In this document: positions 1-18,586 of the stretch, in pieces | Layout: each line of letters starts with the position of its first letter | Numbering within the stretch: position 1 is the stretch's first letter | Origin: Alphaproteobacteria bacterium | GTDB lineage: Bacteria > Pseudomonadota > Alphaproteobacteria > MPNO01 | Direction: 5' to 3' | Length of the DNA stretch: 64,000 bases | Assembly (NCBI GenBank): GCA_964291675.2 | Contig: OZ219865.1 | Span: forward strand, 256,001-320,000 | Notes under the pieces: model-generated | Told to the model about the DNA's origin: nothing | The model's input: only the letters and a program-made list of their open reading frames with translations | The model's database searches: none | Program-made: the position numbers and the translations under genes

Positions 1-1112
1 AGCCCCGTGTTGGCGACGGCCGCGCCGGTCCCGGTCGCCACCGCCTGGGGCTGGAACGCCTGCGAGACGCCCTGGCCCAAGCCGGAGACCACGCCGGCGA
101 GGAACGCCTTCTCGACCAGCGCGCCCTCGCGGCTCACCACCGGGCCGCGCACGCCGGTCTTGCCGGAACCGGCGACGAAGCCCGCCACGTCGGTCTCGAT
201 CACCGTGCCCGGCTCCGGCCCGGCGCAGGTCATGGTGCGGAAGCGGACGTAGACCTTCTCGGAGGAGAGATCGCCGTGCGCCGCCCCGGTCACGGTGCAG
301 CCGTCGACGTCGACCTGCAGGGCGGTTCCGTCTTCCGCCGCGGTCCATGCCGGACCCGTGATCCTCAGCAGCACCGGGCGGGGATCACCCTGCGACGACA
401 CCCCGGCCGAGGCGTCGACGCCGGCCAGCACCAAAGCCTCCGCGTGGGCGCCGGCCGGCAGCCAGACGGAGACCGGCTTCGCAACAGCATCGGCCACCAG
501 TTCCGCTCCGCTCCGGGGCCTGCCCCGGACCCCGTTCCGGGGATCGGTAACGGACGATCGCGGCGAGCCCTCCAGCTCGAAGGTCTCGATCATGCGGCCC
601 GGCAGCGCCGGTCCCGGCTGCGCCTGTCCGCCGGTCGGCCGCGCGTTGCCCCGCGCGCGGAAATAGTCCCCGGAACCCGGCATGGCGCTCGGCTCGGTCC
701 CCGGTTGCGCGGGCGGTTGCATGCCGCGCCGCAGCTCGTCGATCAGCGCCGCCTGGCGGTCGATGACGCGGCGCGCGTCGGCAGCGTCCTCTTCCAGCTT
801 CGCACGCAGCCGGTCGTTGTCGCCCCGGAGGCTGCGCGCCTCCCGCTCCATCTCGCGCAGCTTCGTCTCGATCCCGCCGAGCCTGGCCTCCGAGCGCCGC
901 GTCCAGACCTTCTCGGCCGCGTCCGGCCCGGCGATCTCGGCCTCGATGCCGCCCCGCGGCGCACCTTCCTTGCCGCCGCCCATGCCGAGCCACGCGGCGA
1001 CCACGAGCAGCAGCAGGGCCGCGACCGCCGAGAACAGCAGCAACTGGCGCCGGCGCACGGCTTGCGCCTCGCCCGGGTCGCGCACGGGCCGCCGGTCGTC
1101 GGGGGCGGTCAT
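1..1112 (-). CDS. traB: F-type conjugative pilus assembly protein TraB (VirB10-like); runs off the window start
   Basis: Read by hand from ATG 1112, which overlaps the traK stop: MTAPDDRR...LLLFSAVAALLLLVVAAWLG (TM), a coiled coil, then WLPAGAHAEALVLAGVDA...GDLSSEKVYVR...GVRGPVVSREGAL. Position after traK matches the F-type order. Confidence 0.85.
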   Translation of the reverse strand, partial: MTAPDDRRPVRDPGEAQAVRRRQLLLFSAVAALLLLVVAAWLGMGGGKEGAPRGGIEAEIAGPDAAEKVWTRRSEARLGGIETKLREMEREARSLRGDNDRLRAKLEEDAADARRVIDRQAALIDELRRGMQPPAQPGTEPSAMPGSGDYFRARGNARPTGGQAQPGPALPGRMIETFELEGSPRSSVTDPRNGVRGRPRSGAELVADAVAKPVSVWLPAGAHAEALVLAGVDASAGVSSQGDPRPVLLRITGPAWTAAEDGTALQVDVDGCTVTGAAHGDLSSEKVYVRFRTMTCAGPEPGTVIETDVAGFVAGSGKTGVRGPVVSREGALVEKAFLAGVVSGLGQGVSQAFQPQAVATGTGAAVANTG

Positions 1113-1924
1113 CGCGGCTCTCCCGCCGGGCCGCTTTCCACGACCGCCACGGCAAGCCGTCCGCCCGCGGGCCCGGTGCCGGCCGACGCCAGCCAGAGCG
1201 CGGCAACACGCCCGACGCCCGACAGCCCCTCGATGGTCCCGGCGAGGCCCCCGCTGCCGTCCGCACCGTCCCCTGCCCCGGACCGCGATCCGGGAGCCTG
1301 CCCCGGACCCGATCCGGGGGATGCCGGACCGGCGGCCTCGAAAACGAGCGCCGCGAAGCGCGGGCCCCGCCAGGTCTCGATGAGCGTCAGTCCGCCAACG
1401 GACGGACCATGGCCAGCCTCTATCCCGTAGCCGGGCAGCGGCTCGCGCCTTGCGACCGACCGCACCAGCCCCACCAGCGCCGCGATGTGCGCATCGCCCG
1501 CCAATGCCGGGGCGGACGGCGCCACGTCCGACAGCGCCGCCGCGTCGCGGATCAGGATCTGCGCCGAGTCCCGGTTCGAGGCCGTCAGCGTCAACCGATA
1601 GGTGAAACCCTTTTCCGTGCCGATGAACAGCGTGACCGCGACCCCGTCCGAGACATCCAGGCCGGAGGGCCGGAGGTAGAGGTCGCCGGAGGACGCGTCG
1701 TGCTCGACCGCGAACCCGTCGGGCGAGCGCACCACCTTCGCGATCCGGTCGCCGGCGAGCGCGATGCGGTTGACGTCCGTCGCGGAGATTTCGGCCGCGA
1801 GCTCGGCATGGTCGGCGGCATCGAGGATCTGCATCGCCAGCGCGGGCGCCACAAGCGCGCCCATATACACAAGGTGTGCCGCGAGCAGCAGTGCGAACGG
1901 CCACCGCCGGTGCATCGATGTCAT
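1109..1924 (-). CDS. traK: F-type conjugative transfer secretin TraK
   Basis: Signal peptide, then AEISATDVNRIALAGDRIAKV...LFIGTEKGFTYRLTL. ATG overlaps the traE stop (ATGA). Confidence 0.85.
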   Translation of the reverse strand: MTSMHRRWPFALLLAAHLVYMGALVAPALAMQILDAADHAELAAEISATDVNRIALAGDRIAKVVRSPDGFAVEHDASSGDLYLRPSGLDVSDGVAVTLFIGTEKGFTYRLTLTASNRDSAQILIRDAAALSDVAPSAPALAGDAHIAALVGLVRSVARREPLPGYGIEAGHGPSVGGLTLIETWRGPRFAALVFEAAGPASPGSGPGQAPGSRSGAGDGADGSGGLAGTIEGLSGVGRVAALWLASAGTGPAGGRLAVAVVESGPAGEPR

Positions 1925-2493
1925 TTGCCAGTCTCCATCTGTTCGAAGCGCAGCAGGCCGATCCGCCCGGCGTCGATGCGGAAGGCGAGCCGGTAGCGCC
2001 GGTTCTCGCGCGCCGCTTCCTCGCGGCCGATCCAGGTCACGAGCTCGCCCGCGACCTCGACGCTGAGCCGCGCCGGGTCGGCCTCGATCTCTCCGGGATA
2101 GAAGGCGCTCGCCAGGTCGCGCCCGGCCATGCGGGCCGCCTCGGCCTCGACCCAGGCGCCGATCGCGCCCCGCGCCGAGGCGTGGGACAGCCGCGCCGCG
2201 GCCCGCCGCACATGGCCCGCGTTCTCCGGTGTCAGCGTGAGCAGCGTCACCGCGACGGTGCGCGCCATGTCTTCCAGATACCGCGCCCCGGCGGGACCCG
2301 TGCCGGCCGCGCCGCCGCCGACCTCCCAGGCCGGACCCGAGACCGCCGGCACCAGCACGGTGACGGTCTCGCGCCCGGCGAAGCCGACGGTGAGCGCCAG
2401 GTTTGCCGTCATCGACAGCGCCAGCAGAACGCCCAGCGCGAGGCGGACGTCCCGCACCCGGCGCAAGGCGATGTCCATGTCGCCGCGCCGCAT
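1921..2493 (-). CDS. traE: F-type conjugative transfer protein TraE
   Basis: TM segment, then TVLVPA...YLEDMARTVAVTLLTLTPENA...GELVTWIG; lies between traL and traK. Confidence 0.85.
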   Translation of the reverse strand: MRRGDMDIALRRVRDVRLALGVLLALSMTANLALTVGFAGRETVTVLVPAVSGPAWEVGGGAAGTGPAGARYLEDMARTVAVTLLTLTPENAGHVRRAAARLSHASARGAIGAWVEAEAARMAGRDLASAFYPGEIEADPARLSVEVAGELVTWIGREEAARENRRYRLAFRIDAGRIGLLRFEQMETGK

Positions 2494-2786
2494 CAGCCGA
2501 CATACCGACGGAGATGGGAGGGCGGTGTCGCCTTCAGGCGCAGCACGAAGTCGGGCAGGAACCAGTAGAGGGCGTAACGCGCGATGTTGGCCCCGCCGCC
2601 GCGCTTGACGCGCCGGAGCAGGAGCCAGCCGCCGACGCCGGCAACGAGGCCAGGCACGAACTGGTTGGCGGCAAGCCCGAGCAGCGCCGGGCCCATCAGC
2701 GCGGCGGCCTCGTCGACGGTCCAGAACAGCCAGCGCTCCGGGTCGTCGAGCCGGCGGGGAATGGTGTGGCGGGCGGTGTCGTTCAC
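2493..2786 (-). CDS. traL: F-type conjugative transfer protein TraL
   Basis: 97 aa with IPRRLDDPERWLFWTVDE...LYWFLP...PPSHLRRYVG, the TraL signature. Confidence 0.9.
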   Translation of the reverse strand: MNDTARHTIPRRLDDPERWLFWTVDEAAALMGPALLGLAANQFVPGLVAGVGGWLLLRRVKRGGGANIARYALYWFLPDFVLRLKATPPSHLRRYVG

Positions 2787-2803
2787 GGCTGCCGACCTTC
2801 GGC

Positions 2804-3136
2804 TCAGACGATCGCGGTGCCGACCAGGCCGGTGACGATGCCGGTGCCGGCGCCCGCGGCGATGCCGACACCCACCGCGCCCATCAGCTGCATCGGGTTG
2901 AAGCGCAGCACCGAGCCCACCAGGGCGGCGCCGACGGCGAGCGCCGCGGCGAGCTGGCCGCCGGTGCCGCCGACGATCCCCTCCACCGTGCCGAGCGGCC
3001 CGCCGAAGGTGGTGTCGGTGGTCGCCAGCGCCATGTCCGGCCCCGCCAGCAGCGCCGCCAGGGCGATCCCCGCGGCCGCCGCGGTCCGGAGCGTTGCCAT
3101 GCCCGGAGCCGCCGCCCGGCCGGCCCCTGGTCTCAT
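2804..3136 (-). CDS. traA: Conjugative pilin TraA
   Basis: 110 aa with a leader and two Gly/Ala-rich hydrophobic helices; immediately upstream of traL; start overlaps the excisionase stop. Confidence 0.75.
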   Translation of the reverse strand: MRPGAGRAAAPGMATLRTAAAAGIALAALLAGPDMALATTDTTFGGPLGTVEGIVGGTGGQLAAALAVGAALVGSVLRFNPMQLMGAVGVGIAAGAGTGIVTGLVGTAIV

Positions 3137-3357
3137 CGGTCGTCCCCCTCGATCGCGCTGCCGTCGTCCGAGGTCGACTTGCGCCGCCGCGTCCTCACCC
3201 AGGCGTCGAGGTCCTCCATCAGATAGCGGACCCGGCCGCCGAACTTCAGGAACACCGGCCCGTCGCCCGACACCCGGTAGCGGTCCAGCGTGCGCGTCGA
3301 CAGGCCGAGATGCGCGGCCGCCTCGCGCGTGTTGAGATAGGCGCTCTTCCCGGTCAT
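3133..3357 (-). CDS. Excisionase / RdfS-AlpA-like helix-turn-helix protein
   Basis: YLNTREAAAHLGLSTRTLDRYRVSGDGPVFLKFGGRVRY...LDAW...STSD; GGAG-rich RBS upstream. Confidence 0.85.
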   Translation of the reverse strand: MTGKSAYLNTREAAAHLGLSTRTLDRYRVSGDGPVFLKFGGRVRYLMEDLDAWVRTRRRKSTSDDGSAIEGDDR

Positions 3358-3471
3358 TCCCTTCTCCTCCTGCTCTTGCCTGCCCCGGCCGGCGAGCCGG
3401 GGTGCGCCGCGTCCGGACGGACCCGGTCCCATGCGAGGGCCAAGCGAAGCGGAGAAGGGCGGTTCCGGGGA

Positions 3472-3535
3472 AGGTCGTTTTCGGCGGGGGAAAACGGTCC
3501 ACAGTCTCGACGCCAACCGACGCCAACCGACGCCA
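3472..3535. promoter_or_regulatory. Inverted repeat plus 10-bp direct repeats upstream of the rdfS-tra operon
   Basis: CGTTTTC-N7-GAAAACG at ~3476-3496; CGACGCCAAC x2.8 at 3508-3535. Confidence 0.5.
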
Positions 3536-3757
3536 CGCGGCGACAGCGCGACGGGAGCCCGGCGCCGGGGCCGCGACGGCGGCGCCGCGCCGGACGGGAG
3601 TCGGGTCGGCGGTCTTCGGCGGACGACGCCGCGCCCAAAACCGTCGCTCTTGTCTTGAGAAAGCGCGGGTGGCGTCCGGGAGAGACGGCGCGTGCGGGCG
3701 GCCGGCCCGGAAGCCGGTTCGGGAGCCCGGAGAGGGCAGACCCCCGGTCGGCGCGGG

Positions 3758-4542
3758 CTACGGGCCGGACGCGTCTCCGGCGCCGCGGGCCATCTCCCGG
3801 TACCGCATCGCGACCGCCCTGGCGTTCCTCAGCCGGCGCCCGATCCGCGAGTGCATCCAGCCGCCGACGTAATACTCATTCCCGGCCCGGTCCGGGCCCC
3901 AGATCGCCGCGGCGATCTCCGCGTACGTCCGGCCCTCCGCGCTCCCTTCCAGGGCGGCCAGCAACTCGCGATCCCCGTCCCCCGTACCCGCCCCGGCGGA
4001 GGGGCCGGGACGCCGGACCAAACATCCTCGATCCTGACGACCGCGCGCACCAGCTCCAGCCCGCCGTCCTCCGGGAACGCCGCGCCGCCGGGAAGGCGGA
4101 CCTGGACCGCCGCACCGGGCCGCTCGATCTTCAGCACCAGCGCGCCGTCCGCCAGCCGCAACCCCTCGATCGAGGCGCCGCCCGCCTCCGCCAGCGCGGC
4201 CAGCGGCGCCGCATCCCGCACCGCCCTGCCGTCCGCCATCGGACCCCGCGCCCAGAAGGGGGAGACGATACCGTTCTCTGCCCGGGGGTCTTCCCAGGCC
4301 AGCAGGCCCCAGTCGCGGGCGGCGAGGTCCGCCGCCGTCTGGAGCCTGACCGGAAAGGGTGCCGCCTCCGGCAGGCCGGGGGGCGGAAGGCGGCGCAGCC
4401 ACGCCCCGCGATAGCCCCAACTCGCCCGGATGAAGCTCCAGGCGCGGACCGGGTCCCAGACGGCCGGCAACCCGCGGCGCCGTCCGCCGCGGGCCGGGCC
4501 GGACCCGGCCGGCGGATCCCCGTCCGAGTCCTCCGGGGTCAC
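3758..4542 (-). CDS. FseA-like (DUF6499 + DUF2285) transcriptional activator split by a -1 frameshift
   Basis: Frame 4542..3829 has AWSFIRASWGYRGAW and WGL (DUF6499-like). Frame ending at 3758 has LAALEGSAEGRTYAEIAAAIWG...SRIGRRLRNAR...YR (DUF2285 HTH). Confidence 0.7.
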
Positions 4543-4594
4543 GGGCTTCGCTCCCGGCGTCGGGGCCGGGCCGCTCTTCGGCGCGGCCGCCGCG

Positions 4595-7500
4595 CTACCA
4601 CCGGATGCTGCTTCGGAGCATCACCCCATGCTCGGCCGGTTCGTCGGCGTTGGCGGCCTCGCGGCGGGTCGCGTCGAGATTGACCTCGAACCCGGGATCG
4701 CCCCGCACCGCCGAGGTCAGCCGCCAGCCCAGGCGATACTCGCGCGCCGTGTCCGACAGCCCGAACCCGACATGGGGCGTGCCGGTGAAGCGGTCGCCGA
4801 ACAACACCATGCCGTAGCCCATTTCCGCATCGAGCCGGCTCGACGGGTCCGTCTCGCCGTTCGCTGTCAGCCGCGACGACTCGGGAAGCGCCCACAGACG
4901 CTGCGAGCCGCCCGGATCGACGCCATAAGACGGCGTGAGCGACGCCGAGAGACCCCGCCCGGCGCCGCCCGGCACCAGCCGGACCTGCCCCGACACGCCC
5001 CATTCCTCGTAGCCCTGCTCGGCATGCATCGCCAGGCCGTGCACCCGAAGCGCCATGTCGAGACCCCGCGTCGGGTCCGCGTAGCCGAGACCGGCGCCGA
5101 ACTCCATGCCCGTCCCGGTCTCCGCGTCGCCCCCGTCCTGGCGCACACCGAGCTCGACGGAGGGGCTCAGTGTCGCCCCGCCCGCCAGCGCGAAGGTGCG
5201 CGAGCCGTCGAGCATCGCCCGCATCCGGCTCGCCTCGCCCTGCGCCGCCGCGAGGTTCCCCACGCCCGGCGCCGAGACCCGGTCCGACTCCGTGCGCACC
5301 CAGAACGCGTCCGCCTTCAGCGCCAGCGCGAAGCCGCCCGCCTCCGCCGGCGTCACCAGGTCGCCCCGCACGCCCGTCGCAGCAAGCGTCATCGTGAGAT
5401 CCGTGCGGTAGCGCTGCGCCACGCCGCCGTCGAGGTCGAGCGTCATCCGGCCCGTGCCGGTCCCCGCCATGCCCCACGCCGACACACGCTCGGTGAGCTT
5501 GAGCCGCGCATAGGGCAGCATCGTCGTCACCGTGCTCCCCATCGCGTAGCGCCACTCCCCGTCGCGCGCCGTGCCTTCGCCCACGCTGTGCATCATCGCG
5601 AACCCGGTCAGCAGACGGCCCCGCTCGTAGTCGAAGCCCATCGAGCCGGTCGCCGCCTCGCCGGTCAGCCCGAGGCCTTGCGCGCCGGCCGAGAACTGCG
5701 ACACAGACGCGCCCTGGCCCCAGCTCGTGAACTGCGACCCCGCGCCCGCCGGAAGCACCGCCCGGAACGACGTCCCCATCAACAGCTCGCGCTCCGTCAC
5801 CCGGCGTCCGCCTGCGGTCGTGGCCGGCTCGTTCCACATGCCGGACGTGCCGGGGCGCGCGAACGGGTCGCCTGCCTCGAACCCCGTTCCGGGGTCGTCC
5901 TGCGCCGCATTCGGCGCGCCGAACGCCTGCGCGAGACCCGTCAGCACGCCCGCCAGCACCTTCGCTCCGGCCTGCGATCCGTCGCCGGCCTGCGACAGGT
6001 TCACCCGCTCACCGAGCATCGTCAGGTGCGAGCCCGCCGCGCGCGGCGTCTCGAACCGCGCCGTCAGCGCCGCCACCGCGTCCGAGGCCACCGTGCGCCC
6101 GAAGCGCGACAGCCACATCGCCTGCAGCGGGTCCTCGTTGCGGATGACGCCCTTCGCCTTGCGGTGCATGTTGCGCAGGAACGCGCCCTGTGGATTGGAG
6201 AGCTTGAGGAGGAACGTCTCCTTCCCCTCGTCGATGGCGTCGTCGAGGATGGCGACGCTCACCGACTTCGCCGTCTCGCCCGGCGCGAAGGTCAGCGTGC
6301 CCGACGCGGCCGTGTAGTCCGCGCCCGCCTTCGCCGTGCCGTCGGCGGTCGTGTAGTCCACCGACACCGCTGCTGACGCCGCGCGGTTGAGCGTCACCGC
6401 GAAGTCCAGGGTCGCGTCCCGGCCCTCGCGCGCCGTGCCGCCCTTCAGCTGGATCTGCGCCGGGCCGCCGACAGTCGCGCTCGCCGCGTTCGACAGCACC
6501 TGCCCGCCGGACGCACACACCGCGCCCGTCTCGCCGCAGCCGCGACCGCCCGCCAGCGTCACCGTCACGTCTCTCCAAGAGGCGGGCTTCACCCGCACAC
6601 GCCAGAGGCCCGGCTCGACCCGCTGGACCCGTTTCACCTTGGCCTTGGACGCCCCGAACGACGCTACGGTCGGCGCCACGCCGTCGGCGCCCAGCGCCGT
6701 GCTGAACCGCACCAGGAACGAGAAGGCCGCCTTGCCGTCGTGCTGCGAAGGCATCCTCTCGAACGACGCCGTCAGCGGCGGCGGAGCCGGATCGTCGTTG
6801 TCCGTCACCGCCACCGTGGCTGCCCCTTGCGACGACGAGACCGTGTAGCCGCTGCCGGCCGTGACCGTCGCCGTCACCGACCCGTCCGGCTCGTCCGCAC
6901 CGTCATCGACGGTCGCCACCGTGAAGGTCGCCGTGCCGCCGGTCGGGACCGTCACCTGCCGCGTTCCCGCCGTCGCGTAACCGCCGGACTCCGTCACCGT
7001 CACATCGACCGTGAGCGCGGCCGCCGGAGCCGGACTCGCCGTGAGGGTGAAAGTCGCACTTCCGCCCTCGGTCACGCCCGCGCCCGCGGAAATGGAGACC
7101 TCCGGCGTGTCGGGCGTCACCTGTTCCTGGATGGTCACCGTATGTGTGCTGCTCTCGCCCACCGTGTATCCGGCGCTGTTGGTGGTGAGTTTCAGGACGA
7201 TGGTCTCACCGCTGTCGTCCACGTCGTCGTCGACGATCGTCACCGGGATGGTCGCGGTCGTCGCACCAGACGGTACCGATACTGAGCCGGACCCGAGACG
7301 ATAGTCAGCACCGTAGGTCGCAGTGCCGCTTCCTACCCCGCTGGACACGTTGGATACGTACACGTCAATGGGATAGGTGGGGGCCGCGGACAGGTTTATC
7401 GTCACGTTATGCGTGCCCGATTCCTCCTGCGCGCTCGATGCCTGCGATGCGAACGACGCCACAGGCGGGTCGTCATTGTCGAGGATTCTGGCAGTTACGT

Positions 7501-9826
7501 GTCTGTCAAAGCGACTGTTACTGGACCGCAACGTGCGAAACACGGCGTTCGTCGGATTCGACAGTTCCAGGTAGAGTTCCTCCGTGCCCTCGTACCCACT
7601 GTCATCCGTCGTCGACACGTTTACCGTCTTCTCGGTTTGGTGCGCCGCGAACGTCAGAGTTCCCGACGTCGCGACGTAGTCGACCCCGCTTGTCGCCGTA
7701 CCGCAGTTGTTACCGCTGAGGCATCGGATTCCTCGCGCTTGGTATTGGACCGTCACCGTCTGCTCAGTTGGGGCTGACAGGCGCACGGTAAACGTGACGG
7801 GTTTGCCTTCAACGGCGTCCGTTGATGCCTTCACCGCCACATACGGCGAGCCGTCGACATCGGTGTCGGCGTCAGTGATCGTGCCCGTCGCCGTCGCGTC
7901 GCCCAGCGTCGCGCGTATCGGGTTCGACAACGTCACCGTGAACGTTTTGTTCCCCTCATCCGAACGGTCGCGCCGCGTCGTCGGCACGTGCAGATACTTG
8001 AGTCTGTCACCCGGCTGAAATACCAGCGCACCAGCCCTGGGGGTAAAGTCCGCCCCACTCTGTGCGGTGCCGCTCGATGTCGTGTATTGGACCGAAACCT
8101 GCCGGTCGCTACGCTTCGACAGCGACACACGAAAGATCATCAAACCACCCGCGTCGACATTCGAATCCAGCTCCTGCCAGAATCCGACTGTCGGCAAGTC
8201 ACTCGGCGAAGGCGCCGGAGCTGTCCCGTCGTCGTCGTCAATGATGGTTCCCGTCCCCGTCGCGTCGCCCAGCGTCGCGTTTCTCGGGTTCGACAACCTC
8301 ATGGTAAATGTCTCATCCTCCTCGTCGATGTCGTCATCCGCTGTGACTACGCGCAAAGTGTACGAGGGGGGCCTCTGCTCAGTGCCGCCGCCGAAGGCCA
8401 ACTGCGTCGCCTCCGGTCTCTCGAAGTCGGAGAACGTCGCCGTGTCACCGGGTCCCACCTCCGGATTGAAATCAACGTATACCGTCCGGCCAGTGGGCGC
8501 CGACAGGGAAATTGTGAATTCGACCTTACCTCCCTCGGTCGCGCTCCCATCGGAAATGCTCACCGTCGGCGGAGGGTCGTCGTCGACGATTTTGCCTGTT
8601 CTCCTCAAATAGCCCCCCGACGAGTTTAGTCGCGCATTCGTCGGGTTCGACAGGCGCAGATAGAATAGCTCGTTCCATTCGTACGCCGAGTCGCTCGTTG
8701 TCGATACACGCACCGTCTTTCTTGTTTCGCCTGGGGCGAAACTCAGCGTTCCGGACGCCGCAGTGAAGTCTTTTCCGCTCTGCGCATTGCTTCTTACCCT
8801 GTCCGCGCCACTCTCGGTTGCGTATTGAACTGTCACCGGTCGATCGCTCGTTGCCGACAGAAATACCTCAAACGCAATCTCGTCTCCCTCCGCCACGTTG
8901 TTGCCGATCGCGTCCACCCTAGGGGTCTGAGCTGCCACCGCGTCGCTGTTGTTGGTGATCCGGCCCGTTGCTGTCGCGCTCCCGAGCGTCGGATGTGTCG
9001 AGCTCGACAATGTCAACGTGAACGTCTCGTCTCCCTCCTGCACGGTGTCGTGGGTCGTCGGTACGCGCACGACCTGCGAGTGCTCATGTGTGCGTTCCCC
9101 TCCATGCCAGAACACCAACGTGCCTGACGTCGCGAGGAAGTCCGTCCCGCTCGCGGCCGTCCCGCTCGAAGTCGCGTACTCGACCCTCACCGGTTGCCAC
9201 ACCGGTTGCGGGAACTGCCCTGATAGCGTGACGACGAAGTTCACTGCCTGGCCCTCCCGAGCCTCGGCGGGCGATACGCTCACCGTTAGCGGCGTGGCGG
9301 TGGTCCCCGAGTCCGCAACCGCCAGGGTAGGTGCAATCAGGAACGTTGCTGCGAGCAGCAACCCCGCGAGCCAAACAGGCCGTGGAATGAACATGCCGTT
9401 CGCTCCGCCGGTGCAGAAGAGTCGCAGCAGGCTGCACAGCGCGGATTGGCCGTGCTTCCGTCGCAGGGGGGACCGCGAACGAGCCTTTCGAGGATAGAAG
9501 AAGTCCGGTAGTGCAGGAGGCGACGACCGGCGGAACGGGCATAACGCGCCGAGCAGCAGTCCCAGGGCGGGGAGAAGGGAGAGACGGGCGCACCAGCGCC
9601 CGGGGCGTGGCTCAGGGCCGCACGGGGCGCCTGTCGAGGAAGCCGGCATTCGCGCGCCGGGCGGGCGCCGGACGCATGTCATGCCGCTGGGCCGCCGGGC
9701 AATTATACGCACGCGAGTCACGAGCTCGGCGAACAAGTCGGAGCCGCAGGTCGGCGCCTCCTTGGCAGGCAGTCCCGAACCCCTTCCCGAAGCGGTGGAC
9801 GACTTGCTTTCCAACACTCGCAACAT
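4595..9826 (-). CDS. Large Calx-beta repeat autotransporter adhesin (1743 aa; alternative start at 9394)
   Basis: Multiple V.Y.T.SGTA..G.DF...SGTL.F repeats; C-terminal beta-barrel region (WLSRFGRT...ending RSSIRW); AGGAGG RBS before ATG 9826. Confidence 0.85.
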   Translation of the reverse strand: MLRVLESKSSTASGRGSGLPAKEAPTCGSDLFAELVTRVRIIARRPSGMTCVRRPPGARMPASSTGAPCGPEPRPGRWCARLSLLPALGLLLGALCPFRRSSPPALPDFFYPRKARSRSPLRRKHGQSALCSLLRLFCTGGANGMFIPRPVWLAGLLLAATFLIAPTLAVADSGTTATPLTVSVSPAEAREGQAVNFVVTLSGQFPQPVWQPVRVEYATSSGTAASGTDFLATSGTLVFWHGGERTHEHSQVVRVPTTHDTVQEGDETFTLTLSSSTHPTLGSATATGRITNNSDAVAAQTPRVDAIGNNVAEGDEIAFEVFLSATSDRPVTVQYATESGADRVRSNAQSGKDFTAASGTLSFAPGETRKTVRVSTTSDSAYEWNELFYLRLSNPTNARLNSSGGYLRRTGKIVDDDPPPTVSISDGSATEGGKVEFTISLSAPTGRTVYVDFNPEVGPGDTATFSDFERPEATQLAFGGGTEQRPPSYTLRVVTADDDIDEEDETFTMRLSNPRNATLGDATGTGTIIDDDDGTAPAPSPSDLPTVGFWQELDSNVDAGGLMIFRVSLSKRSDRQVSVQYTTSSGTAQSGADFTPRAGALVFQPGDRLKYLHVPTTRRDRSDEGNKTFTVTLSNPIRATLGDATATGTITDADTDVDGSPYVAVKASTDAVEGKPVTFTVRLSAPTEQTVTVQYQARGIRCLSGNNCGTATSGVDYVATSGTLTFAAHQTEKTVNVSTTDDSGYEGTEELYLELSNPTNAVFRTLRSSNSRFDRHVTARILDNDDPPVASFASQASSAQEESGTHNVTINLSAAPTYPIDVYVSNVSSGVGSGTATYGADYRLGSGSVSVPSGATTATIPVTIVDDDVDDSGETIVLKLTTNSAGYTVGESSTHTVTIQEQVTPDTPEVSISAGAGVTEGGSATFTLTASPAPAAALTVDVTVTESGGYATAGTRQVTVPTGGTATFTVATVDDGADEPDGSVTATVTAGSGYTVSSSQGAATVAVTDNDDPAPPPLTASFERMPSQHDGKAAFSFLVRFSTALGADGVAPTVASFGASKAKVKRVQRVEPGLWRVRVKPASWRDVTVTLAGGRGCGETGAVCASGGQVLSNAASATVGGPAQIQLKGGTAREGRDATLDFAVTLNRAASAAVSVDYTTADGTAKAGADYTAASGTLTFAPGETAKSVSVAILDDAIDEGKETFLLKLSNPQGAFLRNMHRKAKGVIRNEDPLQAMWLSRFGRTVASDAVAALTARFETPRAAGSHLTMLGERVNLSQAGDGSQAGAKVLAGVLTGLAQAFGAPNAAQDDPGTGFEAGDPFARPGTSGMWNEPATTAGGRRVTERELLMGTSFRAVLPAGAGSQFTSWGQGASVSQFSAGAQGLGLTGEAATGSMGFDYERGRLLTGFAMMHSVGEGTARDGEWRYAMGSTVTTMLPYARLKLTERVSAWGMAGTGTGRMTLDLDGGVAQRYRTDLTMTLAATGVRGDLVTPAEAGGFALALKADAFWVRTESDRVSAPGVGNLAAAQGEASRMRAMLDGSRTFALAGGATLSPSVELGVRQDGGDAETGTGMEFGAGLGYADPTRGLDMALRVHGLAMHAEQGYEEWGVSGQVRLVPGGAGRGLSASLTPSYGVDPGGSQRLWALPESSRLTANGETDPSSRLDAEMGYGMVLFGDRFTGTPHVGFGLSDTAREYRLGWRLTSAVRGDPGFEVNLDATRREAANADEPAEHGVMLRSSIRW

Positions 9827-9841
9827 CGCTGGCTCCTCCTG

Positions 9842-9875
9842 ATTACGCGCGATAACTGTCGCTATCGCGCGTAAT
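9842..9875. other. lox-like recombination site 1 (13-8-13)
   Basis: ATTACGCGCGATA-ACTGTCGC-TATCGCGCGTAAT; perfect 13-bp inverted arms (14 with the flanking G/C). Confidence 0.85.
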
Positions 9876-9912
9876 CCGCCGGCTCGTGATTGGACGATCC
9901 GGAGGCCCGCGT

Positions 9913-10896
9913 ATGTATCTCGAACCCCCGTTCGACCCCTGCGAGGGGCCGGGTACGGAACGACAGGCAGTGCTCGCCGAGCAGCTCGGACAGTTCGTCC
10001 GGGCGGCGAGCGGCGCGTTCTCCAGCAACACCGAGCGGGCGCTGAAGTCCGATCTCGCCATCTACGCCGAGTGGTGCGCCGAGCAGGGGGAACGGGCGCT
10101 GCCGGCCATACCCGAGACCGTCGCCGCCTTCGTCGACGCCATGGCGGAGGTGAAGGCGCCGGCCACGGTGCGCCGCTACGTCACCAGCCTGGTCATCGCC
10201 CACAGGGCGCTCGGGCTGGAGAAGACGATCAAGAGCCCGCCCGTGCAGCTGGCGCTCAAGCGCATGCACCGCAGGAAGGGCCGCCGCCAGGACCAGGCGA
10301 CGGGGCTGACATGGCCGCTGCGCCAGCGCCTGCTGGAAGCGGCGGGCGACCGGCTGATCGACGACCGCAACCGGGCGCTGCTCGCCGTCGCCTACGACGC
10401 GATGTTGCGCCGGACCGAGCTGGTGTCCCTGCAAGTCGCTGATCTGCTTGAGGAAGTGCAGGGCGACGGCAGCCTGCTGGTGCGCCGCTCAAAGACCGAC
10501 GGCGAGGGCAGGGGCGAGATCGCCTGGGTCGGCCCGGACACCGTCCGGCTGGTCTGCGCGTGGCTCCACCGGGCCGGGATCGGGGACGGCCGGCTGTTCC
10601 GCTCGGTCGGCAAGAGCGGGCGCATCGGCGAGCGGCTCCATCCCTGCCAGGTGCCGCGCATCTTCAAGGCGATGGCGCGCGCGGCCGGCCTGCCGGAGGC
10701 GGTGGCCGGGGGCCTCTCGGGGCACTCGGCCCGGGTCGGCGCCGCCCAGGACATGGTCGCCGCCGGGATCGAGCTGCCGGCGATCCTCCACGCCGGGCGG
10801 TGGAAGTCCACCGCGATGGTCAACCGCTACGGCGAACGGCTGCTGGCACGGCGCAGCGGGGCGGCGCAGCTGGCCCGGATGCAGAAGCGGGCTTGA
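9913..10896 (+). CDS. Cre-family tyrosine recombinase (327 aa)
   Basis: RNRALLAVAYDAMLRRTE, RRSKTD, SGHSARVGAAQDM, AGRW and VNRY give the R-K-HxxR-W-Y set typical of Cre; GGAGG RBS at 9901. Confidence 0.92.
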   Translation: MYLEPPFDPCEGPGTERQAVLAEQLGQFVRAASGAFSSNTERALKSDLAIYAEWCAEQGERALPAIPETVAAFVDAMAEVKAPATVRRYVTSLVIAHRALGLEKTIKSPPVQLALKRMHRRKGRRQDQATGLTWPLRQRLLEAAGDRLIDDRNRALLAVAYDAMLRRTELVSLQVADLLEEVQGDGSLLVRRSKTDGEGRGEIAWVGPDTVRLVCAWLHRAGIGDGRLFRSVGKSGRIGERLHPCQVPRIFKAMARAAGLPEAVAGGLSGHSARVGAAQDMVAAGIELPAILHAGRWKSTAMVNRYGERLLARRSGAAQLARMQKRA

Positions 10897-10916
10897 GCGC
10901 GCCGGAGGGGGTGTAT

Positions 10917-10948
10917 GGATATGGCCGTCGGGTTATGATGCCATATCC
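10917..10948. terminator. Hairpin downstream of the recombinase
   Basis: GGATATGGC-N14-GCCATATCC; no U-tract. Confidence 0.35.
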
Positions 10949-11015
10949 GTTGCGGTGCGATGCGGAGGCCCGGAACCGGCCTGCGCGCCGATCGGGCGCC
11001 AAATTCAGAAAATGC

Positions 11016-11028
11016 TATCGAGCGTAAT
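11016..11028. other. Isolated lox half-site
   Basis: TATCGAGCGTAAT is the exact reverse complement of the left arm of site 2; a partial arm ATTACGCGC also occurs at 11283-11291. Confidence 0.65.
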
Positions 11029-11185
11029 AATTGGCGCGGTCGGCGGACCCGGCATCCGGCCGGCAGCCCCGCACGGTACCGGCCGATCCCGGAAAAGTCA
11101 CAGTAGTTCAACGGGTTGTCAGAGGTTCGACGCGCGATTCCGTACCCTGTCGCGGGTGCGGCGCGCCGCCGGCGCGAATATGGTA

Positions 11186-11214
11186 TTGACAATATTACGC
11201 TCGATAGCGACAGC
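11186..11214 (+). promoter_or_regulatory. Sigma70-like promoter overlapping lox site 2
   Basis: Perfect TTGACA at 11186-11191, 17-nt spacer, -10 position falls in the lox spacer (GACAGC). Confidence 0.55.
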
Positions 11215-11227
11215 TATCGCGCGTAAT
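11194..11227. other. lox-like recombination site 2, inverted relative to site 1
   Basis: ATTACGCTCGATA-GCGACAGC-TATCGCGCGTAAT; spacer reverse complement GCTGTCGC versus ACTGTCGC at site 1. Confidence 0.85.
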
Positions 11228-11924
11228 CTGGAACCGGAGCGACCGGCTCCGCGCTGCCCGGACAGCCGCGCAAGAGATTGATATTACGCGCATTTTTGAT
11301 GCCGCAGGGGCCTTCCCGCCCCCGGGGATCGGTTCCGCAGCCCGATATCCCTGATATCGTGCACCTGGGACGTTCATCGCCCGGTTCCCCGCGTCTCGAC
11401 AGGGGCGCATCCTCGAAGGATGCGATGCGGAATCAGGTGGGCACGCGGTCCCCCGGCGGCCATTTGCATTTTCCAATGGCGCCGATCGGCGACGCTTATC
11501 GGCGACCGCGGCCGCGAAGGAGACCGGACCCCGCCTTCTCCCTTCTACGCCTGTCCTCATTAGCGAACCGGGACCCGCAGTGATAATGCCGGTCGCCGGA
11601 ACATTCATGCGCCGGCGGCATGCCCCGAAGCCGGCGTGGATCGGCGAGCGCCATCGCCGGACGAGGACGATGGCGCCGGCATGTCGAGGGTCGTTCGCCG
11701 ATCGGGAGGCGAGACCCCGCGGCGCGTCCCGCCGGGGCTCTCCCGCATGGCTGTTCAACGTCCCGAGTTCCCGCACTGCGCACCCCCGAAGCCGCGCCCG
11801 CGCCGTCGACGCGAGACCGGACTGTATGGCGCCGCCGGCGATTGCGCGTCCCCAAGCTGGGGGAAATCGGGAGAAATCATGTTGCCTACCGGCGAATTGC
11901 ATGAAGACGAATGCCTTCAGTGCC

Positions 11925-12865: not shown

Positions 12866-13183
12866 TCTTGCTCAGCACCGGGTAAGAAAAAGAATACACT
12901 GGACGCCTTACCGGGAACTAGGCAACAGATCATCCTCTCCTCCCTACGAACCACTGGCCCCAGGCGCTACGTCCGCCAACCTTGGCGGTTTCCAGCCGCC
13001 TCAAACTTGCTTTCTCAACGTTACCGGTCGCTGGAACCACGAATTATGGCTTCAGGCATTGTGAAACTCTTGGGGCGCCTCTTCTGAGACTGTTGGGGGT
13101 CCCCCGATTCGAGGACCACGACCGTGACGTAGAAACAAAACCATCACCGGTTGGACATCCCTAAACAAATCGGACCATCCGTA

Positions 13184-13768
13184 ATGACAAACTCATCACC
13201 CAGACCGTCTCGGAACTCCAGCAATATTATTTCCTTTCTTGCCGCCATGATAGCGATTATTTTCGCCATTGTTGGTGCAGTCACCGGTTTTCTTGTAAAA
13301 GAGCAAGAATCTTCTCAAGTATTGACTATCGAAGAGTTCCAGGACCTGAGGTCAGCTATTGATGGCAATGAGAAAGGAATTCGTGCACTTGAAGAACAGT
13401 TCCGTGCAGCCATAGAGGCCTCACAGATACAGGAAGGTGAACCCAACATTTCCGTACTATCAAATGATGTGTCGCGACTCAGGGATAGAATGAAAAAGAT
13501 TGAAAGTTGGGTCGTCTTGGAACCTGAGCAAGCTGTTGCCATACCATTGCTGAAGAAAGAGATAGAAGAGATGAAGAGTTCCATGAATAGTCATCTCAAT
13601 AATACTAGCCGTGAAATTGATCGCATCTATACCATTGGCCAATGGTTTATCGGAACTCTCATAGCGGTGATAGTCGCATTAGTTGCTCCATTCATCGGCA
13701 ATTTAATAACATCAAGAAAACAACGAGCAGAGGAACCGAGAAATCAGACCCACCCCGACTCAAATTGA
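13184..13768 (+). CDS. Hypothetical 2-TM coiled-coil membrane protein, low GC
   Basis: N- and C-terminal hydrophobic helices flank a long heptad region; AT-rich relative to the host. Start uncertain. Confidence 0.7.
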   Translation: MTNSSPRPSRNSSNIISFLAAMIAIIFAIVGAVTGFLVKEQESSQVLTIEEFQDLRSAIDGNEKGIRALEEQFRAAIEASQIQEGEPNISVLSNDVSRLRDRMKKIESWVVLEPEQAVAIPLLKKEIEEMKSSMNSHLNNTSREIDRIYTIGQWFIGTLIAVIVALVAPFIGNLITSRKQRAEEPRNQTHPDSN

Positions 13769-14087
13769 ATAAAAAACATCAATCGTAAGAAGAAATGTCG
13801 TCTTCGTCGGATGTTGGGTCAACAGGTCCGAGACAATCCCAGGGTCGTTCTTCTAGCGACTGTATCTATTTGGCAATCGCCCGGTGATGTTACTTTTAGC
13901 GACTTCACTTTGAGAATACCTTACCCTCTGTTCGACTTGAAGCAGTAGATTGCTCCACGAATGAACTTAGTCCTCAACTCCTACTCGTCGCCAATACCAT
14001 CACAATCATCGTGATTATCCGGAGCTCGGCAACCATGTAGTCCTTATGGTGAGTGCCACGTGCATCACTCTTACCGTCGGAATCTGG

Positions 14088-14761
14088 GGTTGTGTCCCAG
14101 CGCGCGGTGTAGGAGTTCTGACGGCGATTGGTAGCTGTGGGTAAGTAGCCCGCCGCAGCGACCGGCGACGAGTCTGGCGGCGGCGGGCTACTTACCCATA
14201 GCGGAGGCCATCGCGGTACCGGTTTAGGGTTGGGGTGCACGTCCGCCCGACCAAAGGAGTACCACGATGCCGGCGGCCAGGGCCGGCGCGTCGTCTCCGC
14301 CTTCGTCGCCACCGCCTTCGCCCAGAACGACGCCGGAGCGGCGAGCGCCCAGTGGCGCCTGGTCGCCGACCAGCTCAGGACCAAGGCGCCCAGGCTCGCA
14401 GCCCTCATGGACGACGCCGAGCACGACGTCTTCGCCTACATGACCTTCCCCAAGGAGCACCGCAGCAAGCTCCACTCGACCAACCCGATCGAGCGGCTGC
14501 AAGCCGAGGTCAAGCGCCGCACCAATGTCGTCGGCATCTTCCCCAACGAGGATGCCATCACCCGACCGGTCGGCGCCATCCTGCTCGAGCAGAACGACGA
14601 ATGGGCCGTCTCGAGGAGATACATGACACTGGAACCGATCGCGCCCGTGAGCGACAATCTCACCGTCAAGCTGCCCACCGTGGCAGCCTGAGCGCCCCGG
14701 CTCCACCCGCCGGATACCGCGATCGACGCCTGGCTCTTACACCACGGGGCGGGACACGATC
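14088..14761 (+). mobile_element. Internally deleted IS256-family element with terminal IRs and 8-bp TSD
   Basis: Ends GGTTGTGTCCC / GGGACACGATC; GAATCTGG duplicated at 14080-14087 and 14762-14769; C-terminal transposase fragment (HSTNPIERL..EVKRRT.VVGIFPN) to 14691. Confidence 0.85.
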
Positions 14762-14959: not shown

Positions 14960-15087
14960 TCGGCATGGACGCGTCGAAGGATCCCATGCCGTGACGGCTA
15001 TCCCAACAGCTGCATCGACGGGCTCATGCCCTGGAACTTCAAACCCTCGTCAAGCTAAGAGCCGGGTGGCTTGGCCGCAACGCTTAC
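14960..15087 (+). mobile_element. IS66 right-end remnant
   Basis: DGYPNSCIDGLMPWNF (TnpC C-terminus), then a terminal ...AACGCTTAC (GTAA end). Confidence 0.7.
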
Positions 15088-15298
15088 CATCCAATTGGCG
15101 TTTGCCAATTAGATGCGCGTCAACTCGAATCACCGAGGAATATTTCCGTGAAGTTAGAAGAGACTCTGTTGACGGAATATAGGTCAGGAAAAATGAAGAG
15201 GCCTTTTTTCATTGGTTGTATACGGTGCCCACAGCCATTTTACCAGATGAAACACTGAAATCACGTGTATATTGTCGACACCCTGTCTACATTTGCGG

Positions 15299-16303
15299 TC
15301 AATGACAATAAACGCTGTCACCTAAACAGACCGGCCTTTCTCCTATCACTCTTGCCACTCTGCACGCGTATTTCTCGGCTACAGCGTGTCTGTGACTAAA
15401 CTCGGCACCCCTTTCCTTCAGCCGTTCCAACATATCGACTCTGATTCTTCCGAAGACGGATTGGTGATATCCTGTGGACAGTAAACTATCATGAAATGAC
15501 CGCTCTATCTCACCAAGCTCCTCTTTGACAAATTCCCGATTCTCTTTTCTCACCGCCGAGACGACATCACAAGCCTTCCTCAACTCGCTCTGCAGTATGT
15601 TGAACCCTCTTCCTAATCCTTTTTTCTTAGGTTCAACGTACGACCCTCCTGCGCCGCATGCTCTTGCACTTATCGTAGGCAGGTAACGAAATCGTGGGAC
15701 CGCAACAACAGTTACGAACTCGCTTACGTTGTTGATGATTATCAGAGGAGGTAGACGACGACCCCTGTCATAGAGGGGCTTCAATTGCGTCGGCTTCTTG
15801 TCACCATTGTATGTTGGCAACACTCCATAAAGTTCTGCTAAACCTTTACCAACTTCCGAGTGGGTTTTAAGGACCTGCGCCACGCTTTGGCACAACCGCC
15901 CAGTTCTTTCCTCTGCACTCGCCACAACTTCTCCGGTCAACGCGAGTTCCCACATAGACTTGTGAAATTCATCGAATTGGAATATCTTTTCTGCCCAAAA
16001 TCTTTCGAACTCGTCCCAATACGCTTTATCTCTCGTCTGTCGAAGACGGCTAGGTAGCTCTTGCACTATTTCGTTGTAGACCTTGGTATACTGGTGTTCA
16101 TCCTCTATAAGCCTTTCCGCCTTTTCCGCAAAAATCTCCTGCTTTTGTCTCTTTAGCAATACAGGGTCGACAATGAATTGCCATATACCAATTGCCGTTC
16201 CTACAACTCCAAGCCCAGGGGCGATGAGCTTCCACGGGATCCGCCTAAAGGACCCCAATTTAGCGCCCATTCCTTGCTCTCGTCGTTGCTTTGTATTCGT
16301 CAT
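15299..16303 (-). CDS. Hypothetical protein with N-terminal TM, low GC
   Basis: 334-aa ORF with one TM and a helical soluble domain; family not recognised. Confidence 0.7.
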   Translation of the reverse strand: MTNTKQRREQGMGAKLGSFRRIPWKLIAPGLGVVGTAIGIWQFIVDPVLLKRQKQEIFAEKAERLIEDEHQYTKVYNEIVQELPSRLRQTRDKAYWDEFERFWAEKIFQFDEFHKSMWELALTGEVVASAEERTGRLCQSVAQVLKTHSEVGKGLAELYGVLPTYNGDKKPTQLKPLYDRGRRLPPLIIINNVSEFVTVVAVPRFRYLPTISARACGAGGSYVEPKKKGLGRGFNILQSELRKACDVVSAVRKENREFVKEELGEIERSFHDSLLSTGYHQSVFGRIRVDMLERLKERGAEFSHRHAVAEKYACRVARVIGERPVCLGDSVYCH

Positions 16304-17093: not shown

Positions 17094-17675
17094 TTATCGA
17101 ATTCGTTCACCGTGGACCTCTCCCCTTGTGCCACGGTCGGTCCAATACTGACCGTGCAGCTCGCCCGGCAATGCAGGATCTCCGATCACATCGAGCACCA
17201 GTGCCCCCATGTGTGTCCGGCTTCGATCCTGAACCGAGATCCGTGGCTGGTTTCGGTACACTCCGAATACTTGGTAGGTCCCGTCATCCTTGGCGACGAT
17301 TCTGGAAGCCGCGAAGTCACCTGCGGACTCCGGCGTCTCCAGTCGTAGATGCAGCTTGGTGTAGGTCTGCCGGATTGTGACCTTCGCCTCTATCGGCTCG
17401 GGGCGAAGGTTGGTCTGCGGATCGGTCCAGAGCGACTTGATGACGAATGTCCAGTCCCCGGCCAGGATTGGACGCTTCACGAACCAGCCTTGCAGCAGCC
17501 GTTGCTTCCACGCCCATCGGTCGAAGAGAGCCAGGGCACCGACCGTCGCGCTCACGGCGCCGCCGAAAGACTTCAACCAGTTCCAGGACAGCGGCTCGCC
17601 GGCGAGCACAAGCGAAACCGCCACCGATGCCAGTGGCACGGCGATGAGCGCGCTGACCTGAACGCGGTCCATCAT
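17094..17675 (-). CDS. cap15: CBASS Cap15-type 2TM beta-barrel effector
   Basis: Two TMs, LFDRWAWK...P.LAGDW...IRQTYTKL..RLET.ES...YRNQP...H.G...GQYWTDRGTRG; coupled to the cyclase stop. Confidence 0.88.
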   Translation of the reverse strand: MMDRVQVSALIAVPLASVAVSLVLAGEPLSWNWLKSFGGAVSATVGALALFDRWAWKQRLLQGWFVKRPILAGDWTFVIKSLWTDPQTNLRPEPIEAKVTIRQTYTKLHLRLETPESAGDFAASRIVAKDDGTYQVFGVYRNQPRISVQDRSRTHMGALVLDVIGDPALPGELHGQYWTDRGTRGEVHGERIR

Positions 17676-18586
17676 CCGCTTTCTACGTAGTTCCAAGCGT
17701 CGTAGAGAAACTGATTTGCTTGAGCGCGGGTCCACGACTGGGAAGCGGGGAACAACAGCTTGATACCGTTCTCTTCGGTCCACGCGCCGCACACGGCGTC
17801 GGTGCGCGTGTGTTCCCAGAGGTGAGCGATGACGCCCTGCGTCATGTCACGCAGCGAAGGCCGGCCGAAGAGATGATCGGGGGCATTCCAGATCAGGCTC
17901 TCGATCAGGAAGGAGGCCATCGCCCTCGCCGACGCGACGCCTGCATCATCCATCTCGTGACTGAGCTTCTTCACAATGCGCACCGCCCTCTTGAAGCGCC
18001 GATCGGTGGCATTGTTCTTCGCTACGCCGTTGTCGTACTGCTGCTGAGGGAAGTTGGTGATCAAACGTCCCGTGTCATCGGCGATGAGAGCGGTGCCCTC
18101 ATGATATTGCCAAGCGTTGAGGTACAACCGATAAGCGAAGCAGGGCGCGGCGTCGGCGTCGACGCGCCCGGTGTTCTCGTTGACGTCGAACGCCTTGTTG
18201 CCGCGCCGAACGTTGGCCCGTCCGAACCTGTTCACCAGTGCCCGCTCGACGTCGTTCTTGTAGCTGCCGAACTTGTAGCTGGCAGGCGTGATTCCGACAC
18301 TGAGTGCCAACAGGCCGGGCGGAAGGTCGTAGTAAAACGTGTCCTCGCAGAGCACGCAGACATCGACATCGCTGTCCTGCCGAACATTGGTACGATTCCG
18401 ATAGCTGCCCTGCGGAAAGGTCCGCACGTTCCTGGTCGCGAGCGTCGCATCCGCCGCCACCGCCCCCTTGATGGCCTGCACGGCACGGTCGCACCGCTCC
18501 TGCTCCGTCTTGCCGGGCGGCTTGGACCACGCGGAGAACACTCTCTCCCAGTCCCGCCTGGTTCTTGTCTGTACGGACACCGTCAC
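17672..18586 (-). CDS. cdnE: CBASS CD-NTase, CdnE-like
   Basis: W.KPP..TE...QGSYRNRTNVRQDSDVDV...DADAAP...NFPQQ..DNG..KN..T...FK..VRI.K...SFLIESLIWN.P. Confidence 0.88.
   Translation of the reverse strand: MTVSVQTRTRRDWERVFSAWSKPPGKTEQERCDRAVQAIKGAVAADATLATRNVRTFPQGSYRNRTNVRQDSDVDVCVLCEDTFYYDLPPGLLALSVGITPASYKFGSYKNDVERALVNRFGRANVRRGNKAFDVNENTGRVDADAAPCFAYRLYLNAWQYHEGTALIADDTGRLITNFPQQQYDNGVAKNNATDRRFKRAVRIVKKLSHEMDDAGVASARAMASFLIESLIWNAPDHLFGRPSLRDMTQGVIAHLWEHTRTDAVCGAWTEENGIKLLFPASQSWTRAQANQFLYDAWNYVESG

Follow-up and report, generated by a model that had tools for sequence, protein, structure and literature searches.

We analysed a 64-kb stretch (the whole of which is called the window below) of the 4.8-Mb genome of an Alphaproteobacteria bacterium, contig OZ219865.1. 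In it, a gene for a Cre-type tyrosine recombinase lies between two inverted lox-like sites, directly beside the start of a giant adhesin gene. This 1.39-kb cassette (positions 9842–11227) is probably a self-contained invertible promoter switch for the adhesin, and it belongs to a large family in which the central spacer bases of the two sites always agree. The original prediction for this DNA had named the Cre-type recombinase, two sites of 13-8-13 loxP geometry with inverted spacers that share CTGTCG and differ only at the outermost base, an adhesin whose ribosome-binding site (RBS) and ATG abut site 1, and a TTGACA just inside site 2 facing away from the adhesin; the sites proved correct to the base, and the other elements were found where they had been placed (Table 1). 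The spacers, ACTGTCGC and GCGACAGC, are inverted to each other, have the central 6 bp (CTGTCG) in common, and differ in one outermost base.

The target of Cre consists of 13-bp inverted arms around an 8-bp spacer (PMC11260471). When the 4.8-Mb genome was scanned for the full 34-bp pattern of the window cassette, it occurred only at sites 1 and 2, and a reversed control pattern gave no match. The 13-nt arm, with up to two mismatches allowed, occurs five times in the 64-kb window, against 1.22 copies expected, and 1 of 100 shuffled sequences reached five. A palindromic 13-8-13 target adjoins the recombinase gene, with the same geometry found in 35 cassettes, and the segment has inverted repeats at its ends and a recombinase gene close to the repeats.

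The recombinase resembles Cre over nearly its full length, with both domains covered: a phmmer search of the PDB returned 17 Cre or Tre chains (best E-value 5.4e-25, query residues 30–312 aligned with chain residues 32–330), and Pfam assigned Phage_integrase (E-value 2.9e-12). Its residues R166, K194, H271, R274, W297, and Y306 align with R173, K201, H289, R292, W315, and Y324, the catalytic set of Cre (PMC10250229), so the set is complete. The six residues (R-K-H-R-W-Y) are invariant in 21 of 21 relatives, all of which are intact and 326–327 amino acids (aa) long, and the pairwise ratio of nonsynonymous to synonymous substitution rates (dN/dS) has a median of 0.28 (range 0.13–0.45 in 209 of 210 pairs). 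The intact reading frames, invariant residues, and low dN/dS indicate that the recombinase gene is under purifying selection.

Cre cleaves 6 bp apart, and inverted sites give inversion. By the mechanism that we propose, the recombinase would bind the four arms of the two inverted sites and exchange strands across CTGTCG, and the sole product would be inversion of the segment, recombinase gene included. The TTGACA inside site 2 would form the outward promoter, with the spacer of that site supplying the second hexamer. In the orientation that was assembled, the promoter would read into a conserved non-coding flank, and the position that would hold the −35 element on the adhesin side reads GCCGGC; the adhesin is proposed to be off in this state because the promoter faces away and GCCGGC stands at −35. 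After inversion, the promoter would lie upstream of the adhesin: flipping the segment in silico gave TTGACA, 17 nt, GACAGT, and 28 nt to the adhesin ATG, reproducing the TTGACA-N17-GACAGT product that had been predicted. The second hexamer corresponds to spacer positions 3–8, which read GACAGC at present and GACAGT after the flip, a change expected if the outermost spacer base takes no part in the exchange and remains on the adhesin side. We infer from these sequences that the segment flips in living populations, that the TTGACA promoter is active, and that adhesin expression depends on orientation.

Relatives of the recombinase (45–89% identity over the best segment) are encoded at 53 loci, which come from metagenome-assembled genomes (MAGs) labeled mostly as Alphaproteobacteria, Rhodospirillales or Rhodobacterales, with a few Gammaproteobacteria. 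A search around homologous recombinase genes for the same 13-8-13 sites, as suggested with the original prediction, allowed both sites to be defined in 35 cassettes of sponge-type MAGs, up to 10 per genome. These 35 cassettes correspond to 36 rows of data, with two candidate left sites in L023, and they include L056, L057, and L060, nearly identical copies taken from separate assemblies. In all 35 cassettes, the central 6 bp of the two spacers are inverted and identical without a single mismatch, even though 11 different central sequences occur (CTGTCG, CTGTTG, CTTTCA, CTGTTA, CTATTA, CTATCG, CTGTCA, CGGTAT, CTGTAT, CTGTAA, and CTATTG). A Cre-type reaction requires spacer identity, and this perfect covariation indicates that the paired inverted sites are functional partners. 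In the recent paralogues L010 and L012, with 97% identity between their right flanks over 2.9 kb, the spacer core has changed in concert at both sites. It is difficult to account for concerted change at sites 1.35 kb apart unless they recombine or selection preserves their ability to do so.

One relative has the cassette in the opposite orientation relative to its flanks. An all-against-all BLAST comparison of the flanks gave no left flank matching a right flank. A more sensitive search showed that the left flank of locus L019 matches the right flank of the window at an equal distance from the site; on the recombinase-5′ side of L019, conserved blocks run collinear with the right flanks of the window, L062, and L042 for approximately 250 nt, and its right flank has a 40-nt block in common with the left flanks of L007, L008, L009, and L039. 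The outer spacer bases agree with this arrangement. The commonest form of the cassette, including that in the window, has A-core-C at site 1 and G-core-C at site 2, and L019 has G-core-C and G-core-T, exactly the pattern predicted for a Cre-type inversion that leaves the outermost bases with the flanks; the hexamer facing the left-type flank in L019 is GACAGT. The swapped flanks and the outer-base signature together indicate that inversion has occurred at least once in the history of the family. Thus, the proposed comparison of orientations around homologous recombinase genes yielded one flipped relative among the 35 cassettes.

The candidate −35 element is similarly widespread. An exact TTGACA lies inside site 2 in 30 of the 35 cassettes, at a distance of 2 nt in 28 and 1 nt in 2, and the bases around it vary. 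The best matches elsewhere were 5/6 in L033, 4/6 in the second cassette of the window genome, and 3/6 in L029. Position 2 of the second hexamer is A in every cassette.

The presumed target encodes a surface protein with seven stretches of Pfam Calx-beta (E-value 2.3e-99) and a weak match to a LapA domain; the GC content at third codon positions (GC3) is 0.83, and translation of the N-terminal region shows a signal-peptide-like stretch approximately 85–100 aa past the annotated ATG. On the minus strand beyond site 1, the sequence reads C-AGGAGG-AGCCAGCG-ATG, so that the gene starts 15 nt from the site and the interval has no room for a promoter. The RBS likewise begins within 5 nt of site 1 in L010 and L012. 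The giant adhesin described beside site 1 has counterparts elsewhere: giant open reading frames (ORFs) of 857 to more than 1900 aa stand outside site 1 in at least 23 of the 42 loci with a called recombinase ORF, and their Pfam mosaics include Calx-beta, cadherin-like, fn3, SWM_repeat, Big_5, and He_PIG domains. In genome G001, all eight full cassettes adjoin a giant gene with a common N-terminal region.

Several observations weigh against the proposed switch. The orientation bias is about 34:1, with 1 of 35 cassettes flipped, and 10 of 10 copies in G001 and 7 of 7 metagenome contigs are alike; flipping, if it occurs, would be rare or strongly biased. In the Logan contigs of four runs, we found neither a strand-change joint nor a piece spanning a site, although such contigs drop minority forms. 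The second hexamer matches TATAAT at 3/6 positions, and a sigma-70 scanner did not call a promoter at this place in either the window or L012. TTGACA is missing in L029 and in both gammaproteobacterial cassettes (L036 and L038), and the conserved 37 nt upstream of the recombinase gene, when examined, contained no identifiable promoter for it. The usual orientation points the candidate promoter into a conserved non-coding flank of approximately 480 nt. In addition, site 1 and the likely start codon are 130–170 nt or more apart in several relatives, and the signal-peptide-like stretch lies 70–95 aa into the ORF, so the giant genes of those relatives may use a promoter outside the cassette.

The last two points bear on an alternative that we consider unlikely, in which the cassette inverts and the adhesin is not under the control of TTGACA. 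Orientation would then govern expression of the recombinase, of a right-flank transcript, or of a smaller envelope gene to the right, and the giant gene would be transcribed either from a promoter in its own leader or from the right flank, across the cassette. The weak second hexamer and the 130–330-nt leaders ahead of the signal-peptide-coding part in many relatives are consistent with this, as are the right flank, a constant companion of the cassette conserved over 230–700 nt, and the envelope-protein genes that some loci have on the same strand, 690–1300 nt downstream. Such control is difficult to reconcile with the window, L010, and L012, where an RBS no more than 5 nt from site 1 leaves no room for an external promoter, with the fixed distance of 1–2 nt between TTGACA and the site in 30 of 35 cassettes, and with the window itself, which has no gene beyond the right flank.

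A mobile element, either an IS-like (insertion sequence-like) tyrosine-recombinase transposon or an integrative mobilizable module, would have the 34-bp sites as its terminal repeats, and its position beside adhesins would reflect target preference or hitchhiking. The size and single ORF of the cassette are IS-like, there are up to 10 copies per genome, DNA homology in a congener is bounded by the two sites, and genes for TrwC relaxase and type IV secretion systems (T4SSs) lie near several loci. The distribution is also patchy, being confined within the order to a single genus (4 of 78 genomes) yet extending to other alphaproteobacterial orders and to Gammaproteobacteria. We nevertheless regard this explanation as quite unlikely. 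The near-identical copies at unrelated sites, with flanks differing on both sides, that an IS or transposon would leave were not found: copies within a genome have diverged (75–97% aa identity), the flanks are non-random (in G001 the 5′ end of a giant gene in 8/8 and the right flank in 10/10), and no empty sites were found in that genome. By the established mechanism, inverted non-palindromic spacers cannot yield excision in a Cre-type reaction, and the outward TTGACA and a lone half-site are conserved. It is very improbable that the cassette is a non-functional or structural relic, that is, a Cre-type dimer-resolution system of a plasmid or integrative and conjugative element whose site was duplicated in inverted orientation, with inversion absent or irrelevant today. 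Its plasmid homologues of approximately 50% identity are annotated only as recombinase or integrase, two that were examined lack paired sites, and cassette orientation is almost uniform, all as a relic would have it; perfect spacer covariation in 35/35 cassettes with 11 variants, purifying selection on the recombinase, the conserved accessory features, and the flipped relative L019 argue to the contrary.

The invertible promoter switch may in some loci have two outputs. In the window TTGACA does face away from the adhesin, as the original prediction of an OFF state held, and the device may act as a two-way toggle instead of simply switching ON and OFF, because its candidate promoter faces a conserved flank and some loci have envelope genes beyond it. 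A wider reading, possible though doubtful at present, is that of a horizontally spreading family of self-contained Cre-type toggles common to sponge-associated bacteria of several orders. Many copies would have their own arm and spacer specificities, making up a natural collection of recombinase/site pairs that are orthogonal in part, and each cassette would give stochastic phase variation of one giant adhesin-type gene. Here the spacer would double as a promoter hexamer, the non-exchanged base would set an orientation-specific promoter strength, and the half-site and right flank would bias the cassette strongly toward OFF.

The lone half-site is a fifth copy of the arm and forms a 16-nt perfect inverted repeat with the inner arm of site 2. 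It is conserved as TATCG.G...AA in 22 of 22 aligned cassettes, is uniform in orientation, and lies 177–180 bp (approximately 17 helical turns) start-to-start from site 2 in 26 of the 28 alphaproteobacterial-type cassettes. It also resembles the arms of its own cassette more closely (1.2 mismatches on average) than the arms of other cassettes (2.1). The promoter-like sequence that it overlaps, TTCAGA-16-AATAAT, is the sole such site that the scanner called in the window cassette. To judge from this conservation, the half-site is a part of the cassette that the earlier anatomy did not include.

The proposed arrangement has partial counterparts among known systems. In the Hin/hix H-segment of Salmonella, the invertible segment contains the recombinase gene along with an outward promoter, from which a surface-protein gene is expressed in one orientation only; the recombinase, Hin, is a serine invertase dependent on an enhancer and on Fis. 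The arrangement here is alike, with a Cre-type tyrosine recombinase and lox-like sites in their place. The R64 shufflon uses a tyrosine recombinase (Rci) to vary an adhesin on a conjugative plasmid, through many sites and by rearranging coding segments. Tn4430 TnpI/IRS, which resolves cointegrates, is Cre-like and has a core site plus accessory copies of the arm, by which the reaction is steered; the lone half-site may be analogous to these copies. Neither the shufflon nor TnpI is known to flip its own gene together with a promoter. The fimS, hyxS, and ipuS elements of E. coli (with FimB/FimE, FimX, and IpuA/IpuB, respectively) are likewise promoter elements that control adhesins and are inverted by tyrosine recombinases; however, they are 260–314 bp long with repeats of 7–16 bp, the recombinase genes lie outside the element or merely overlap it, and the enzymes, which do not resemble Cre, lack 13-8-13 sites. 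As reported in PMC6083910, the autotransporter UpaE is under the control of ipuS, whose mapped promoter matches 4/6 positions in each hexamer. Cre/loxP of P1, Vika/vox, Nigri/nox, Panto/pox, and the eight systems of PMC10250229 have the same protein family, catalytic set, and 13-8-13 target near the gene. In contrast to these, two inverted sites here bracket the gene of the enzyme itself, so that inversion alone would result; a conserved fifth arm lies approximately 178 bp from one site, and a candidate outward promoter element stands beside one site; and the cassettes lie on the chromosome or a conjugative element, before giant adhesin genes, in many diverged copies per genome. The excision assays in the portion of PMC10250229 available to us concern single predicted palindromes, not natural inverted pairs.

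Full-text literature searches, which covered PMC10250229 in part, returned no description of this module. If flipping is real, it would be, to our knowledge, the first natural Cre-type gene switch that carries its own gene. Phase variation gene by gene of giant eukaryote-like adhesins in sponge symbionts would bear on host attachment or on how the bacteria avoid being eaten, and a spacer serving as both crossover region and promoter hexamer would be a compact design principle. For genome engineering, the family would also be a source of dozens of Cre/lox-like pairs that diverged in nature, with 11 spacer cores and several arm variants. The window genome alone holds two distinct recombinase/site pairs, which are natural candidates for orthogonality.

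The module is proposed to have spread horizontally, together with the 5′ part of the giant gene and the right flank, and to have multiplied in sponge-associated bacteria, with arms and spacers that often differ. Rather than standing alone, the window cassette is one copy of a widespread and horizontally shared module. In the order of the window genome, the recombinase was detected (E-value ≤1e-80) in 4 of 78 genomes, all of one genus, a patchy distribution that looks horizontal. The 5.4-Mb genome G001 has 10 copies, 8 of them full length, and every right-flank copy and every strong giant-gene N-terminus in it adjoins a cassette, leaving no empty site. The window genome (G000) has its second cassette on contig 2 at approximately 3628500–3629900 (L075: 6504–7864); its arms (TCGGCTCGCGATA) and spacers (ACTATTGT and ACAATAGT) are unlike those of the window, and an ORF of 1199 aa lies on its recombinase-5′ side. 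In the congener, DNA homology begins and stops at the two sites (query 1039–2427). No orthologous adhesin locus for comparing orientation was found by DNA search of 61 genomes or protein search of 78 genomes. The best plasmid homologues in cultured bacteria (approximately 50% identity) are from Methylobacterium, Methylorubrum, and Lichenicola, and no paired lox-like sites (up to two arm mismatches) were found in the plasmid records L081 and L082 or in the Azospirillum locus L044. In metagenome contigs, the summed depth is 200–940 over the recombinase and approximately 15 on the flanks, which fits many related copies in those communities; a pattern scan of the metagenomes gave seven contigs with approximately four distinct cassettes, all in the usual orientation. 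Contigs of the RNA run X4 covered recombinase relatives at 90–95% likeness only and not the window locus. In L020, L028, and L030, which belong to one genome, homology stops at approximately 7280–7300, a little short of where TTGACA and site 2 would be expected, and gives way to a transposase gene of the IS256 family; an IS insertion may have locked these switches.

Table 1. Features of the cassette and its surroundings (window positions)
Feature	Position	Strand	Description
Giant surface protein gene	4595–9826	−	1743 aa; presumed switch target; from the ORF list, Pfam Calx-beta
Leader	9827–9841	−	AGGAGG at 9840–9835, 8 nt to ATG (9826–9824)
Site 1	9842–9875		lox-like 13-8-13, perfect arms, spacer ACTGTCGC
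Cre-family tyrosine recombinase gene	9913–10896	+	327 aa; PDB Cre match, Pfam Phage_integrase; RBS GGAGG at 9901–9905
Lone fifth arm (accessory half-site)	11016–11028	−	Overlaps promoter-like TTCAGA-16-AATAAT (11004–11031)
Internal motif	11107–11118	+	TTCAACGGGTTG; near-invariant columns of the cassette alignment
TTGACA, candidate −35	11186–11191	+	2 nt before site 2; reads outward through site 2
Site 2	11194–11227		lox-like 13-8-13, inner arm with one change (ATTACGCTCGATA), spacer GCGACAGC, inverted relative to site 1
Conserved non-coding right flank	11228–11530		Hairpin, GCGCAAG...ATTG motif, invariant GATATC, further blocks

The flank outside site 2 is conserved over 230–700 nt in 15 loci and is recognizable in the window, L062, and L042. 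Its stretch of approximately 480 nt was noted in the right flanks of L003–L018, L024, L035, and L046. Among the relatives it is always at the TTGACA side, L019 excepted, and all 10 copies in G001 adjoin a cassette. A coding function was rejected, since its indels have lengths that are not divisible by three and GC3 does not support such a reading. Rfam contained no family matching the cassette or right flank of the window and four relatives, apart from sub-threshold chance matches, and a terminator scanner called none in the right flank of the window. Near the end of the flank there is possibly a short conserved ORF beginning M-A-x-I-G. The hairpin of the flank, together with an ATTGTCT-like motif, bears some likeness to the nick region of a relaxase. 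Further to the right on the same strand are genes for an autotransporter (L011), for proteins resembling outer-membrane β-barrels (L004, L006, and L016), and for SH3 proteins (L010, L012, and L046), the envelope-protein genes of those loci lying 690–1300 nt downstream. L011 has surface-protein genes reading outward on both sides, a He_PIG giant gene at 2899–5877 (−) and the autotransporter gene at 8013–10592 (+), approximately 690 nt to the right, and is the clearest candidate for a two-way toggle.

To the right of site 2 in the window, a tblastn search with 90 right-hand neighbor proteins of the relatives matched only a fragment of an IS256 transposase (14230–14691). The regions 13050–13950, 15000–16300, and 17094–18586 include islands of low GC content (0.41–0.49, against 0.69 overall). 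A protein with a Cap15 cyclic-dinucleotide-receptor domain, adjoining a 304-aa ORF with no Pfam match, is also encoded there, to the right of the cassette, and suggests a defense island of the CBASS (cyclic oligonucleotide-based antiphage signaling system) type. Directly downstream of the adhesin gene (3–3516) are genes with TrbI-like, TraK_N, and TraE domains and one for an HTH_17 protein. These F-type transfer genes have a weak codon-position GC signal and may be decaying. With TrwC relaxase genes near the cassettes of several relatives and T4SS genes near several loci, the claim that the adhesin sits on a conjugative element is a reasonable one.

Codons 4–8 of the recombinase gene (GAACCCCCGTTCGAC, 9923–9937) and the internal motif TTCAACGGGTTG resemble a second, imperfect inverted pair within the cassette, a likeness that may be due to chance. 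Finally, the 5′ regions of two cassette-adjoining giant genes contain tetranucleotide repeats, with 17 units in L013 (5770–5837) and 14 units in L024 (3951–4006), a hint of slipped-strand phase variation as a second layer.

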